Origin: Dictyostelium discoideum
Lineage: Eukaryota
Direction: 5' to 3'
NCBI GenBank assembly: GCA_000004695.1
Contig: CM000153.2
Span: 1,088,001 to 1,152,000, forward strand
DNA length: 64,000 bases
Shown: positions 4,738 through 15,004 of the stretch, one piece after another
Layout of the letters: every line of letters starts with the position of its first letter
How positions within the stretch are numbered: position 1 is the stretch's first letter
Translations under genes and position numbers: made by a program
The notes under the pieces: generated by a model
Databases searched by the model: none
The model's input: the letters and a program-made list of their open reading frames with translations, nothing else
What the model was told of the DNA's origin: nothing

Positions 4738-6270
<1,533 letters not shown>

Positions 6271-6706: not shown

Positions 6707-7472
6707 ATGAAAATTATAAAGTATTTTTATACTTTCATACTCTATTTTTTATTTTTATTTAATTGTTTGGCGTTTGTTAAAAGTGGTGACCTGGAATGTA
6801 AAAATAATTTATTATTAAAATATCAAGTATTTGCAAATACTTTGTGCGATTCAGCAGAAGTTAATACCACAACAATCACTTTTCGTGCAACTTGTATAAA
6901 TAATATTCTTTACACTTTGTAAATATCAACTTGAAGTAATAATAATAATAAAAATAATAATAATTAATAACTAATTTTAAAAATTAATTTAAAATAGCCA
7001 TATTACTCCAACTGCTAGCGCACCAAATGTTACATTGACTTATGATGATTTGAATTGCTTCACAGATCTTTCTGATATGTAATTATTTAAAATATATAAT
7101 TAATTATTTTTTTTTTTAAAATAAAAAAAAAAAAAAAAAAAAACATGGATTTTAATAGTGTACAATAATTAAAAAAAAAAAAAAAAAAAAAAAAGGGTTT
7201 TCACAAATGTTAGATTCAATGGAAATGCATTTGGACAGGAGAATCAACAACAGGTAGCAAAAAGACTTTATTTTATTAATTGTACATTTGAGTCTGGTGA
7301 AATTGGTGATTCCCTTTCAAAAAACACAACTCTAGTTTGGATTGAATTTAATGAGAATTCAAATTTAAAAAATATTTATTTTTTAAATATTAAACATTTA
7401 GAAACATTGTAATTATAATTTAATATTATTTCCTATGGCCTATAAGTTTCAATTTTAACTAACTTTTTGGTG

Positions 7473-7512
<40 letters not shown>

Positions 7513-10500
7513 AATAAATAAACTTTAATAGTATACTAACTAGAATAGGCGATTTGGCTAAAATTCCATATATTGATAATAATCTTCAAAATCCTTCATA
7601 TCATTTTAAAGAAATGTTTGTATAAATTAATATTATTATTATTAAAATTTTCTTTCCAAATATTAATTTCAGTTTGGAAAAAAAAAAAAAAAGAATATTA
7701 GTTACAGAACAATTAATGTCATTTAATGGTTTAAATTGTTCAAGAATGACTATTACACTTATAAATGCAACAGAACAACATAGTGGATTAGATTTTTTAA
7801 ATACCATTAATAGTATTGATGAATTGAATTTAGATTTTGGTGATAATTTAATTGCCTTTCCAGGTATAATAGGTTCAAACAATAATAAATTAAAAACTCT
7901 TTCAATTTCAGGTAAATTTAAAAAACCATCAATTATAGGATTAACTATTCAAGAAGGCCTTCAAGAGTTTTCAATTAATGGTGGTGGTGAATTATTTAAT
8001 ATTAATGGTGCTTTACCATTCTTAACTATTCCATCTTCATTAAAGTTATTTTATATTGCTGATATTGGTTTAACCACTTTTCCAACCTTTCCACTTAATA
8101 TTGAAACAATGTAAATATATATATATATATATAGTTTAATTTTTTTTTAATTTTTTTTTTAAATACTAATTTTAAAATTTTTTTTTATTAATTTATTATT
8201 ACTATTATTATTATTAAAAAAAACTATTAGATTAATTTATAAAAATAATTTTGGAGGCATTTTACCAGATTTGTCAAGTTATAAAAAATTATCACATGTT
8301 TCTTTAGCAGAGTGTGGTTTCACTGGTACAATTCCAGAAAGTTATTGTATGTTTACTGGTACTTTAAATAATAATTCACTTACTGGTTTTTGGCCCCAAT
8401 GCAAAATATGTTATTTTGATAATTTTGAAGAAAGTTTTGATGGTAATCCATCACTAGAGAAAGGAAATTGTGGTATGTATTATAAATTAAAAATAAAAAA
8501 TAAAATATATATGATTTTATATTAATATTAATATTAAAAAATTTAGAACCAGGATCAATTGTTCCAAATTTAGAATATTATAATGTTTCAAATGAAATAA
8601 CATTATATGGAGAGAATTTAGGCATTTTCGGTCCAGGTAATATTTATAATATAGGATTTAAAGTAATAAATAGACAATCATTATTTAAAGCAATTTGGAA
8701 TGAAACAGCCAATGGTATAATTCCAAATATTATTGAACTTAATTTTGGTGGTACTAATTTTAAATTAGCAACTAAATCTTTAAAACCAATAGTTCAATCT
8801 ATTACAAAGCTTGGTTCTAATTATGCTTTTAAAGGTGAAAATTTCTCTTATAATAAAGAACATTTTGAAGTTAAAATTGGTGGTGTACCATGTGAAATTA
8901 ATTATATTGCTTTTGAAATTATTAAATGTAGTTTCAAAACATCAATATTACCAAATAATGGTATAGATATCAAATCAACAATTCAAAATTTTAATATAGA
9001 TCAAATAATTTCATTCACTGTAAATACAATTGATAATAAAACAACAGATATTTTAACATGTGCATCTGAATGTCTTAATGGTGGTTTTTGTAGTTCAACA
9101 AGTGGTAATTGTATTTGTGGTGAAATATATAAAGGATCTGATTGTGCTATTTTAAAGACATGCCAAAACAATTGTATAGATTCAAATCATGGATATTGTA
9201 ATTATACAAGTGAAAGTTGTGTTTGCGTTAATGGTTGGTCTGGTAATGATTGCTCAACTATGGTTTGTACTTCTGATTGTAGTGAACCTTTAGGTAATGG
9301 AAAATGTGATACAACCACTGGAATTTGTAAATGTTCTCAACAATATACCAGTGATGATTGTAGTTTACCAAATCAATATATTTCATCAGTATCATCAGTA
9401 CCAACAAGCGGTGGTGTTGTAAATATCTGGGGTTGGTTTGGTACAATACATTCAGGATTATCAATTATGATTGATCAACAAGTTTGTCAACATGATGTTA
9501 ATTCAATTACTAGTAGTTTTATAAATTGTACAGTTGGTGCTGGTAGTGGTACACAATCAATTACTCTCACTCAAAATGGTATTACATATACTGGTAATAA
9601 TATGTTCCATTATACTGAATTAACATATAGTTGTCCAAAAGATTGTTCAAATAATGGTAAATGTAATACAAATACAGGTCAATGTAAATGTAATAGTGGA
9701 TGGGGTGGTTATGATTGTAATTCAAAAAAAACAACTCAACCATCAACATCATCATCATCATCAACAACAACTACAGCATCCTCTTCAACAACTGGTTCTA
9801 CTGAGACACCAACACCAACTTCAACACCAGTAGTTGAAATTCCAAAATCAAATACTACAATCAATGAAGATTTAGGTTCAGCAGTTATCAATAATCAACA
9901 GACAACATATGAAATTTCAATTTTATCATTAATTGAAACTGATTTTTCAAATAATATTGTAAATACATTTAATTTATCAAAGAAATGGACAGCTTCAGTA
10001 AGCACAGATAATATCTATAAATTTACTCAAACAATTCAAGAATCATGTAATATCACATACACTATTGAAGAGATTAAAACAGAAAGAGATTATCAATGGG
10101 CAGGTTTAGATTTAACATTGGATAAAGATTCAATCAAAATTTCAGTCTCAATTAAAAATTACACTTTTAATAGTGTTTTAAATAATCTTCAATTAAGATT
10201 TGAATCATTAGTAGGTGATAATAATAAAAATACTCAAGATAATAATGAATGTAATAATAAAGATACTCAAGTTGATACAAGTGAAATCGATAAAAATCAA
10301 TTATTAAATTATGTAACAATATCAAGAAATCAAAAAGTTTTATATGGTCGTTTCATTAATAGAGTTATTAGTGATTCAAGACAAACTTTTATAACAACCT
10401 CTGTAATTCCAAATAATAATAATAATAAACAATCAGTGATCATTGGATTAAATCTTCCACATTGCACGCATGAATGTTTAATTGATCCTGATTTCTCTGT

Positions 10501-10702
10501 TTTGGTTTCACCATCATATCAAGAATGTTCTAGTGATTTAAATAATGGTCGTGCCAGTTGGGTATTACCTGTTGCTATCGTTGTACCTTGTGTTGCTGTT
10601 GCTGCCATTATTATTATTAGTGCGGTATTGTATAAAAAGAATCGTTTATCTTTTTTGATTGTCAAAAATAAGTTAAATAATATAAAACTTTCCAAAAAAT
10701 AA
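6707..10702 (+). CDS. Paralog A of a tandem family: large type I membrane protein (signal peptide, LRR region, IPT/TIG-like fold, EGF-like modules, Ser/Thr mucin stalk, conserved juxtamembrane domain, TM, short tail). About 7 exons: 6707-6918, ~6998-7078, ~7197-7408, ~7532-7615, 7673-8110, 8231-8472, 8547-10702
   Basis: Signal peptide MKIIKYFYTFILYFLFLFNCLA. The LRR motif L..N.L.G.IP appears in LSHVSLAECGFTGTIPESYC and TLNNNSLTGFWPQC. EGF-like modules are CSEPLGNGKCDTTTGICKC, CPKDCSNNGKCNTNTGQCKCNSGWGGYDC. IPT/TIG-like stretch is PNQYISSVSSVPTSGGVVNIWGWFGT...VCQ...FINCTVGAGSGTQSITL. The TM helix is WVLPVAIVVPCVAVAAIIIISAVLY, followed by KKNR. Splice phases are consistent across exons (track ORFs 6533-6922, 7674-8114, 8271-8525, 9260-10702). 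Confidence 0.65.
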
Positions 10703-11058: not shown

Positions 11059-14000
11059 ATGAAATCAAATTTTTTATTTAATTTCTTTTTACTATTATTT
11101 TTTATTAATATCCTAAAATTTGGTATTGTAAAATCAAGTAATTTGATATGTTTAAATAGTATTTCAACAAAATTGGCAGGAAGCACAATTTCAGATTATT
11201 GCACTAATGAATTAACAGTAAATTTATATTCATTTTCATATAGCACAGTATGTAATGGAACAACTCTAACTCAACTGTATGTAGAGTTCATTCTTTTTTT
11301 TTTAATTTTCTAAAAAAATTAATACTAATTATTTTTAACTTCTTTTTTATAGAACTCTTAGTACCATTTTATACAATAATAAAAGTTTGTCATATACTGA
11401 ATTAAATTGTTTTGAAACAACATTAGAATCACTGTAAAATACCAAAATTATATTATATTATTACAATTTTTTTTATTTTTTTTATTATTATTATTATTTT
11501 TTATATTAATATGATGATGATTTTTTTTTTTTTTTTTTTAATTTTTAGAATTTTAAATAGTATTTTAATACATGAAGATTCCTTTGGAGTTGAAAACCAA
11601 CCAGCAATTGCTGATACAATTACTTTAAGTAATGTTACATTCATAGGTAATTAATTTATAATAATAATTTTTTAATTTTTTTAATATTTCTCGAAAATAA
11701 TATTAATTCATAATTAAATAGATGGAAGATTTACATCTCTTGGAAATTCTTTACCATTTAATACAAGCACTTTAAACATTTTTAATCTTGGAACATCAAA
11801 TTTACTCTTTATTGATTTTTTAGCTATTAAAAACCTAAAAACATAGTTTGTATAATTAGTGATATTAAAATTAAATATTATTTTTTTTTTTTATTAATTT
11901 TTTTTTTTTTTTTTTTTAAAAATTTGAAAAAAGCTATACAATTAATTTTAATTCTTTAGAACCTTATCCAACATATACCAATAGTTTAACTAGCCCAGAC
12001 TTTAAAATGGAAAAAATGTAGGTACTTTTATTATAAATTAAAAAAAAAAAAAAAAATTCTAATATTATATATAAACAGAACAATGGCTTTATCAAACATT
12101 CCTTCTTTTTTAAATGTTGTAGTTGACTATCTAGAATTGCTATTAGTTGGAACATCATTTTCTTCATCACAATTATCAAATTTAGGAACAATGACTCATG
12201 TTTCAGCTTTGGCTTTTAAATCGAATTCTGCTATTGAATATCCAACAGAGTTAGGTTCAGCAAATAACAGCATTACTACTTTAACGTTGACAACACCACT
12301 TCTTGCATATGCTAATTATGCTCTCCCTCCAAACCTTGCCCTGCTTTATGTTAGTGCAGGTTCAAATTTCAATTTTAACAAAAGGCTCCCATTCAGTGTA
12401 TTCCCGTCTTCTTTAAAATCTATATTTATTGGAGCTATTGGTATTGATTCTTTTAGTCAGGTCCTTCCTCAAACAATTGAAGCTATGTAAGTATTATTTT
12501 TATATATATTATTATTTTTACCATTATTAGAATAAAAAATATTAATTGTAGAAAATTTCAATCAATTCAAATAGAACAATTTCAAATAATCCTATGGGAC
12601 CAAGAAATTTACCAAGTTTTGAGCATTACACAAACTAACTCAACTTACCCTAACAGGATGTGGATTTACTGGAACAATTCCAGAATCATATTGTTTATTT
12701 GATTGTGTGTTAAGTTCAAATAATTTAAATGGTACATTACCTCAATGTAAGATTTGTCATGCTGAAGAAAATTATGGTAAATTTGAAAGTAATCCAAATT
12801 TAACTCAAGGAATATGTTGTAAGTATAGTAATTTAAAAATTAAAAACTAAATGGTAATTCTAATTATAAACTTTATTAGATCCAGGATCAATCGTTCCAA
12901 ATTTAGATTATAATAATATTACCAAGAGTTTAGAATTATATGGAACCAATTTAGGTTTACATGGTCCATTAATAAAAGAAACAAATCAAACATTTGCAGT
13001 TAATCTTCCACAATCTTCATTCAAATTAAATTGGAATGAAGTTGTTTATGGTACAATTCCTAATACAATTGATATAAAAATTTCAACAAAATACTATACA
13101 TTGGCAACTAAATATTTAAAACCAACAATTTTTGAAATTACAAGGTCTGGTAATACCTTTACATTCAAAGGAAAAAACTTTTCTTACAATATCAGTGTTA
13201 TTGAAATTAAAATTTTAGATATTGAATGTCCAATAAGTTATAGTGAATTTACTATTATTAATTGTAAATCTAATAAAACTCAATTGGGTAATTCAATCCA
13301 AGGAACAATTCAAAATAAAATGTCTACTGAAATTATTCCATTTTATCTAAATACAAATGATAATTCAACATCAATACAATGTAGTACTGATTGTAATGAA
13401 CCTTTAGGTAATGGAAAATGTAACATCGCAAATGGAATTTGTAAATGTATCAATGAATTTATTGGTAATGATTGCTCTATACCAAATCAATACATTTCAT
13501 CAGTATCATCAGTATCAACAAGTGGTGGTGTTGTAAATATCTGGGGTTGGTTTGGTACATTACATTCAGGATTATCAATTATGATTGGTCAACAAGTTTG
13601 TCAACATGATATTAATTCAATTACTAGTAGTTTTATAAATTGTACAGTTGGTGCTGGTAGTGGTACACAATCAATTACTCTCACTCAAAATGGTATTACA
13701 TATACTGGTATTAATATGTTCCATTATACTGAATTAACATATAGATGTCCAAAAGATTGTTCAAATAATGGTAAATGTAATACAAATACAGGTCAATGTA
13801 AATGTAATAGTGGATGGGGTGGTTATGATTGTAATTCAAAATCATCAACTGATGGTGGAACTACAACAACAATATCATCATCATCATCAACCACAGGTAC
13901 AACTCAAACACCAACACCAACAAAGGAAATTCCAAAATCAAATACAACCATTAATGGAACTGATGGTTTAACTGTTTTGAATAATCAACAAACAACATAT

Positions 14001-14810
14001 GAAATTTCAATTGTATCATTAATTGAAACTGATTTTTCAAATAATATTGTGAATACATATAACTTATCAAAGAAATGGACACCTGTAAACCATACCAATA
14101 TAAATATCTATAAATTTACTCAAACAATTCAAGAATCATGTATTATCACATACACTATTGAAGAAGTTAAAACAGCAAGAGAATATCGATGGGCAGGTTT
14201 AGATTTAACATTGGATAAAGATTCAATCAAAATTTCAGTCTCAATTAAAAATTACACTTTTAATAGTGTTTTAAATAATCTTCAATTAAGATTTGAATCA
14301 TTAGTAGGTGATAATAATAGAAATACTCAAGATAATAATGAATGTAATAATAGAGATACTCAAGTTGATACAAGTGAAATCGATAAGAATCAATTACTAA
14401 ACTATTTAACAATATCAAGAAATCAAAAAGTTTTATATGGTCGTTTCATTAATAGAGTTATTAGTGATTCAAGACAAACTTTTATAACAACCTCTGTAAT
14501 TCCAAATAATAATAATAATAATAAACAATCAGTGATCATTGGATTAAACCTCCCACATTGTAAAAATGAATGTTTAATTGATCCTGATTTCTCTGTTTTG
14601 GTTTCATCATCTTATCAAGAATGTTCAAGTGATTTAAATAATGGTGGTCGTGCCAGTTGGGTATTACCTGTTGCTATCGTTGTACCTTGTGTTGCTGTAG
14701 TTTTAATAGCAATTATTGTTGCAATTTTATACAGAAAGAATCGTTTGGCATTTTTAATTGCAAAAAGTAAAATTAATGATATTAGATTATCAAAGAAAGA
14801 ATTAAAATAA
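11059..14810 (+). CDS. Paralog B of the same family, about 8 exons: 11059-11276, ~11351-11444, ~11549-11646, ~11722-11845, ~11934-12017, 12079-12486, ~12575-12811, 12880-14810. Possible pseudogene: exon 7 has an apparent 1-nt frameshift giving an in-frame TAA near 12636
   Basis: Same architecture and exon phases as A and C. The 3' exon (track ORF 13101-14810) is about 95% identical to C. The LRR exon matches track ORF 12083-12490. Unlike A and C, no track ORF covers the exon between 12490 and 12880. The homologous frame ...NPMGPRNLPSFEHYTN* stops, and reading resumes +1 as LHKLTQLTLTGCGFTGTIPESYC. Confidence 0.5.

Positions 14811-14968: not shown

Positions 14969-15004
<36 letters not shown>

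Follow-up and report, generated by a model that had tools for sequence, protein, structure and literature searches.

Is a gene that looks broken in the Dictyostelium discoideum reference genome broken in the organism, in its laboratory lineage or only in the assembly? The question is raised by a stretch of 64,000 nucleotides (nt) of the AX4 genome (GenBank assembly GCA_000004695.1, contig CM000153.2, positions 1,088,001 to 1,152,000 of the forward strand), hereafter the window, whose own coordinates are used throughout. It contains three paralogs, copies A, B and C, arranged in tandem and head to tail on the + strand, and the middle one, the ComC-like gene copy B (DDB_G0283853), is interrupted in exon 7. 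Below, we trace this interruption to the loss of a single C, which probably took place on the laboratory lineage, in a gene that is intact in other strains and species.

Exon 7 of copy B is frameshifted

The exon model of copy B was derived from open stretches, GT/AG sites and homology with copies A and C (Table 1). Its last exon is 100% identical to DDB_G0283853 of D. discoideum AX4. Projecting its exon junctions onto the D. discoideum strains CR116C and OT3A gives exactly their annotated proteins (1056 and 1059 amino acids, respectively), which validates the model. With one C put back into exon 7, copy B becomes an uninterrupted open reading frame (ORF) of 1062 amino acids, the remaining seven exons all being open.

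The introns that flank exon 7 are in phase 2 before it and in phase 1 after it, so its length has to be 2 modulo 3; this is the case in copies A and C, and exon 7 of copy B, with 244 nt, is therefore one base short. Entered at its acceptor AG (12573-12574) and read in frame, it gives …TISNNPMGPRNLPSFEHYTN and then a stop, a TAA that lies 180 nt 5′ of the exon 7/8 junction. The conserved text (A)LHKLTQLTLTGCGFTGTIPESYC… is in frame with codons starting at 12623, and what follows the stop is still conserved and open, one base out of register. No ORF of at least 50 amino acids spans this exon on the + strand; the ORFs of the homologous exons, at 8271-8525 in copy A and 16628-16879 in copy C, are both present. 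These results agree with a preliminary description of the locus, made from the sequence without database searches, which had proposed a frameshift with a premature TAA in copy B, uninterrupted exons in copies A and C, and no long ORF over the exon in B.

Intron 4 of copy B (11846-11933) has unusually weak splice sites (GTTTGT…AAAAAG). The wild-strain annotations have the same junction, and using the next GT instead would bring in an in-frame TAG.

A single C is missing from a CC pair

The identity of the lost base was read from a DNA alignment with six other copies of the locus. At the lesion, the window and the assembly GCA_054883475.1 (locus tag ACTFIT) both give ACAAAC-TAACT; the reading of two Logan contigs (SRR28564542 and SRR26869268) and of the assemblies GCA_054859385.1 and GCA_054859355.1 is ACAAACCTAACT (His-Tyr-Thr-Asn-Leu-Thr). 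The codons AAC-CTA (Asn-Leu) are ancestral, and in AX4 the CC pair has been reduced to one C. The preliminary description had placed the loss just upstream, in the AAA run (12632-12634). Putting back an A would restore the frame as …HYTKLTQ…, but the intact alleles give …HYTNLTQ…, and the base at fault is the single C. The loss of a T from AAC-TTA, a guess made from one protein alone, was excluded by the DNA alignment. The lesion site is a CC dinucleotide and not a homopolymer.

Searches with the repaired B protein recovered full-length orthologs (1052-1061 amino acids) in two other D. discoideum assemblies and in D. citrinum, D. dimigraforme and D. firmibasis. Two D. cf. discoideum genomes have shorter ortholog models (855 and 865 amino acids) that still cover exon 7. 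The orthologs of all seven genomes are uninterrupted across the lesion site (…YYTNLTQLTL… or similar).

An intact allele much closer to that of AX4 was found in the Logan read assemblies, within the 90% cluster of the closest ortholog. There, an 85-amino-acid ORF (MGPRNLPSFEHYTNLTQLTLTGCGF…), present in five contigs, equals the AX4 allele at each residue and runs through the site without interruption. Contigs of the haplotype that carries it come from three or more runs and, this site aside, match the window at 100% over 1.2-1.4 kb. The GTG-started ORF of 47 amino acids that is unique to the deleted allele is not on record in these read assemblies, an absence that is uninformative, as these include few Dictyostelium runs; an ORF of a dimt1 exon and the exon-6 ORF of copy C are likewise not on record in the same collection.

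Real deletion or reference error

The assembly GCA_054883475.1 shares the single C with the window, and its B coding sequence is identical in all eight exons. The two sequences disagree, within 14.7 kb, at seven very long A/T/C/G runs and by five substitutions, one of them at coding position 16972 (see below), so GCA_054883475.1 was not copied from the reference. Between 7482 and 14971, each of the eight A/T runs that measure 12-20 nt has the same length in both, which indicates good base-level polishing.

Ten de novo genomes were described by Holland et al., PNAS 2025 (PMC12745789; supplement of 10.1101/2025.08.01.668227), namely those of AX2-214, CR116C, OT3A, two possible cryptic species, three D. 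citrinum, D. dimigraformum and D. intermedium. They were assembled with Flye from Nanopore reads and polished in 10 Pilon rounds with each strain's own Illumina reads, with about 40x coverage per read type for AX2-214 (PMC12745789). The species make-up of this set agrees with the NCBI records found here, and because AX2-214 is its sole AX4-like strain, we infer that GCA_054883475.1 is AX2-214. The single C would then be common to two laboratory strains whose assemblies rest on different technologies. AX2 and AX3/AX4 were derived separately from NC4. Our confidence is roughly 0.8 that the single C reflects a true deletion, one that occurred on the NC4 lineage ahead of the separate derivation of these strains.

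The alternative that survives best is a mistake in base calling or assembly of the 2005 Sanger AX4 reference, with CC and an intact gene in AX4 itself. It draws on the five Logan contigs from three or more runs, with CC on a haplotype that otherwise matches the window completely, and on the AX4 annotation, which simply truncates the gene. However, the same single C appears in an independent de novo Nanopore assembly that was polished with its own Illumina reads and is not derived from the reference, and a dinucleotide is not a miscall-prone homopolymer; the homopolymer error suggested in the preliminary description is unlikely. In addition, the Logan genotype can be told apart from the laboratory strains at position 9269 in copy A, where AX4 and the presumed AX2-214 have A (Thr); G (Ala) is found in CR116C, in OT3A and in a 1871-bp Logan contig that occurs in four samples. 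The Logan genotype is thus close to the laboratory strains but distinct from them, so it belongs to a different strain and is uninformative on AX4 itself. The G-to-A change at 9269 and the loss of the C would be two derived changes common to the laboratory lineage relative to a near relative. Overall, we regard a reference error as unlikely.

Several points nevertheless weigh against a real deletion with functional consequences on the NC4 lineage. The identity of the AX2-214 assembly is deduced from the strain table of the paper and is not stated in the GCA_054883475.1 record, and the single C of AX4 is known from the reference assembly. All five Logan contigs that cover the site have CC and are otherwise identical to the window except for the length of one poly(A) run; the runs they come from include SRR26869267, SRR26869268 and SRR28564542. 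Finally, the loss of function and the transcript decay given below are predictions.

The comparison of the two assemblies also brought up differences elsewhere in the array. The very long homopolymers at 16878-16937 (60 A, in intron 7 of copy C), 7473-7513, 14972-15003, 19066, 19490-19535 and 19835-19845 are 3-17 nt shorter in the Nanopore-based assembly. At position 16972 in copy C, the AX4 window has G (PGSGVPN), and GCA_054883475.1 and CR116C have T (PGSVVPN); the G is either an AX4-specific Val-to-Gly change or a reference error.

Splicing across the lesion

The two existing annotations of copy B avoid the premature stop in different ways. The AX4 model begins downstream of the lesion, at an artificial Met (Table 1). 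The AX2-214 model (845 amino acids) starts in exon 6 and crosses the lesion by means of a 41-nt 'intron', across which it reads …PRNLP/RCGFTG…. We regard both as artefacts of pushing an ORF through a frameshift.

If the 41-nt segment were really spliced out, or if its donor at 12616 were used as a cryptic donor and joined to the exon-8 acceptor, the frameshift would be rescued at the RNA level, and an internally deleted, membrane-anchored protein would be made. The arithmetic allows both routes, as removing 41 nt leaves 203 nt (2 modulo 3) and keeps the frame, and the segment 12575-12615 has the phase-1 end that exon 8 needs. But the donor GTTTTG is non-consensus, the segment is shorter and richer in GC than the real introns of this locus (Table 1), its removal would delete the LxxLxL strand of a leucine-rich repeat (LRR) that is conserved in all orthologs, and the intact alleles all have this sequence as ordinary exon. 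Such a rescue seems quite improbable to us.

Other splicing routes were also considered. None of the alternative acceptors within exon 7 (AGs ending at 12604, 12616 and 12623) brings the conserved text into frame, and skipping exon 7 would be out of frame, joining phase 2 to phase 1.

State of the gene

Selection on copy B was estimated from its coding sequence as the ratio of nonsynonymous to synonymous substitution rates (dN/dS, Nei-Gojobori estimates). The ratio was 0.30-0.34 between AX4 and the wild strains CR116C and OT3A, at a dS of about 0.10, and 0.21 between the two wild strains. These values point to a gene under purifying selection, with an AX4 allele that appears to have undergone no clear relaxation. 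No further stop or frameshift was found in the 3.2 kb of the B coding sequence. The lesion is not fixed in the species, as CC is present in CR116C, in OT3A and in the five Logan contigs of the near-identical haplotype.

The deletion is recent, because a 1.4-kb haplotype that is otherwise identical has the intact allele and because copy B has no second lesion. As a near-identical haplotype still has the intact allele, copy B is better described as a 'segregating or lineage-specific null allele' than as a 'pseudogene'. The young pseudogene of the preliminary description is thus half retained: the copy is young and disabled only once, given one lesion, seven intact genomes and a low dN/dS, but the name 'pseudogene' fits it less well, with the lesion not fixed and the constraint kept.

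If copy B were an old pseudogene, in decay throughout the species or clade, the truncated AX4 model and the weak splice sites of intron 4 (GTTTGT…AAAAAG) would be accounted for. We find this scarcely plausible in the face of a single lesion, full-length intact copies in seven other genomes, a dN/dS of 0.21-0.34 at a dS of about 0.1, and the use of the same weak-site junction in the wild-strain annotations. A programmed ribosomal frameshift or transcriptional slippage, for which only the 1-nt offset beside an AAA run could be invoked, may be dismissed almost outright, as it would need a -1 shift where there is no X_XXY_YYZ slippery heptamer (CAU UAC ACA AAC UAA) and the protein is encoded in one frame in all other alleles.

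A hypervariable locus had been suspected, the B proteins being 93% identical between D. discoideum strains, and was excluded: the divergence is general and dN/dS is well below 1. CR116C and OT3A are divergent tropical isolates, at a distance of about 0.025 from AX4 in a tree of BUSCO proteins (PMC12745789), and because such isolates are already ~2.5% diverged from AX4 in these proteins, a 7% divergence of the B protein does not amount to hypervariability.

Predicted protein architecture

The repaired B protein matched ComC_SSD (PF22933) with 208.6 bits against a cut-off of 24 (E 1.2e-61, residues 773-993) and EGF_2 with 25.5 bits against a cut-off of 22.1. EGF_Teneurin, EGF_TEN, TIG and the second beta-sandwich of ComC were matched below the Pfam cut-offs. 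The Pfam scan gave no LRR_ComC (PF24141) match for copy B or C; the LRR region of B had weak matches only, below the Pfam LRR cut-offs (LRR_1, E=1.3, residues 358-377; FNIP, 0.0017). A precomputed LRR_ComC match exists for the exon-6 ORF of copy A. By eye, a hydrophobic stretch near the N terminus (MKSNFLFNFFLLLFFINILKFG) and another near the C terminus (WVLPVAIVVPCVAVVLIAIIVAILY) of B are candidates for a signal peptide and a transmembrane stretch, respectively.

The CR116C ortholog was modelled with AlphaFold2 from a 12-sequence alignment. The model is confident in its N-terminal half only (predicted local distance difference test score of 80-95 at residues 30-390), where it consists of short, regularly spaced strands, and it has a helix at 1024-1046. 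Foldseek searches against the PDB with this model returned LRR ectodomains (PSKR, BRI1, LGR5, Lingo-1 and InlA) as well as IPT arrays (plexin and MET), in both cases at E of about 1e-4 to 1e-5 and with low TM-scores. On the strength of this model, it is reasonable to treat exon 7 as a putative LRR exon. Copies A, B and C are predicted to be ComC-like type I membrane proteins, made up of a signal peptide, an LRR solenoid, IPT, EGF and supersandwich domains, a transmembrane helix and a short tail.

According to Glöckner et al. 2016, comC has EGF domains, a signal peptide and a transmembrane region and is restricted to group 4. Copy B resembles the ComC family (PF22933, PF24141 and PF24143) in its supersandwich and EGF_2 domains and in its N-terminal signal-like and putative C-terminal transmembrane stretches; the likeness to LRR ectodomains of the N-terminal 360 residues of the ortholog model and the LRR_ComC match in copy A may go in the same direction. 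It differs in that its own LRR scores lie below the Pfam cut-offs, and the likeness is one of domain matches.

Layout of the array

The features of the locus are listed in Table 1. The window is 78% A+T, with short GT…AG introns. The array lies between cysteine proteinase 3 and the rRNA adenine dimethylase gene (dimt1), and its synteny (cysteine proteinase 3, A, B, C, dimt1) and copy number are unchanged in CR116C and OT3A.

Table 1 Features of the ComC-like array and of the lesion in copy B, in window coordinates.
Feature	Position	Strand	Remarks
Single C (lesion)	12635	+	CC in every intact allele
Premature TAA	12636-12638	+	ends the product after residue 358 (…PSFEHYTN)
Exon 7 of copy B	12575-12818	+	244 nt (mod 3 = 1); last LRR units and Cys-rich cap
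Remainder of exon 7 of copy B	12639-12818	+	conserved, open, one base out of register (LTQLTLTGCGFTGTIPESYC…NPNLTQGIC)
Exon 7 of copy A, intact	8231-8472	+	242 nt (mod 3 = 2)
Exon 7 of copy C, intact	16609-16856	+	248 nt (mod 3 = 2)
41-nt 'intron' of the AX2-214 model	12616-12656	+	donor GTTTTG, 36.6% GC; real introns 61-115 nt, 6-16% GC
AX4 annotation DDB_G0283853	12927-14810	+	628 aa = residues 436-1062; artificial Met start
Copy B, DDB_G0283853	11059-14810	+	8-exon ComC-like gene
Copy B, exons 1-4	11059-11276, 11353-11433, 11549-11646, 11722-11845	+	
Copy B, exons 5-8	11934-12017, 12079-12486, 12575-12818, 12880-14810	+	
Copy A, DDB_G0283869	3′ end at 10702	+	
Copy C	15072-18881	+	own model 1064 aa, length equal to the AX2-214 annotation
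Similar 3′ tract	A 9266-10671, B 13380-14770, C 17459-18848	+	89-96% nucleotide identity between copies
Cysteine proteinase 3	about 4858-6012		5′ flank of the array
rRNA adenine dimethylase gene (dimt1)	about 19981-21115		3′ flank of the array

Contrary to the preliminary description, the array is not homogenised throughout. The proteins of A, B and C are 20-50% identical over their first ~600 residues, exon 7 included (about 66% nucleotide and 45-50% protein identity between copies), and 80-100% identical over the last ~450; at the nucleotide level, high identity is confined to the 3′ ~1.4 kb. Here the three copies behave as tandem arrays under concerted evolution by gene conversion do, and the similar segment looks like a sharply bounded conversion tract over the predicted EGF, ComC supersandwich and transmembrane parts. 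Unlike in a fully concerted array, the tract begins in B about 560 nt downstream of exon 7, so conversion neither caused the lesion nor easily repairs it. Within the tract, a 462-nt block is 96.5% identical between A and C.

Copy A differs from its neighbours in its exon structure. Its exons 3 and 4 are fused (7173-7409), at a place where an intron is present in B (11647-11721) and C (15658-15733), and the absence of intron 3 would represent an intron loss or gain inside the array. The acceptor of its intron 5 (window 7620-7700) differs between published models: DDB_G0283869 (1141 amino acids) reads …KEILEKKKKRILVTEQ…, and ACTFIT_006647 (1134 amino acids) reads …KEIILVTEQ…. In CR116C, the annotation merges cysteine proteinase 3 and copy A into one model of 1413 amino acids, ACTFIR_010198, which is probably a gene-fusion annotation artefact.

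Predicted consequences for laboratory strains

In the NC4-derived laboratory lineage (AX4 and AX2-214), the deletion of one C from the exon-7 CC pair would make the B mRNA meet a TAA after codon 358, just before the strand LTQLTL. The truncated product would at best be a secreted LRR fragment, without the last LRR, the Cys-rich cap, the IPT, EGF and supersandwich domains and the membrane anchor. With a stop 180 nt upstream of the last exon junction, the transcript itself is also likely to undergo nonsense-mediated decay. We infer that copy B has probably lost its function in this lineage. The protein collection searched held no transcript-derived B sequence, and a literature search found no paper mentioning DDB_G0283853.

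A comparable situation is reported for the tgr family, also made up of tandem surface-protein genes, in which some copies that are disabled in AX4 are open in other strains (10.1101/2025.10.22.684067). Copy B differs from these genes in being ComC-like and not an IPT/TIG Tgr, and its lesion is one 1-nt deletion common to two laboratory strains. In the genomes covered here, the synteny and copy number of its array are preserved, whereas tgr genes undergo rapid turnover by birth and death.

A wider proposition, which we think doubtful, is that AX4, AX2-214 and by extension other NC4 derivatives are without a functional ComC-like LRR surface receptor that natural isolates keep under purifying selection. 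If true, the model strains would be missing part of the behaviour by which wild D. discoideum recognises other cells or prey, and one C could restore it. DDB_G0283853 is in any case not a 628-amino-acid protein, being the tail of an eight-exon, 1062-codon ComC-like gene that is disabled in the reference. Users of AX2 or AX4 as 'wild type', or of comparisons within the family, should treat copy B as a null allele in these strains. The value of the finding thus lies chiefly in annotation and strain hygiene; otherwise, it would be an ordinary lineage-specific loss-of-function mutation.

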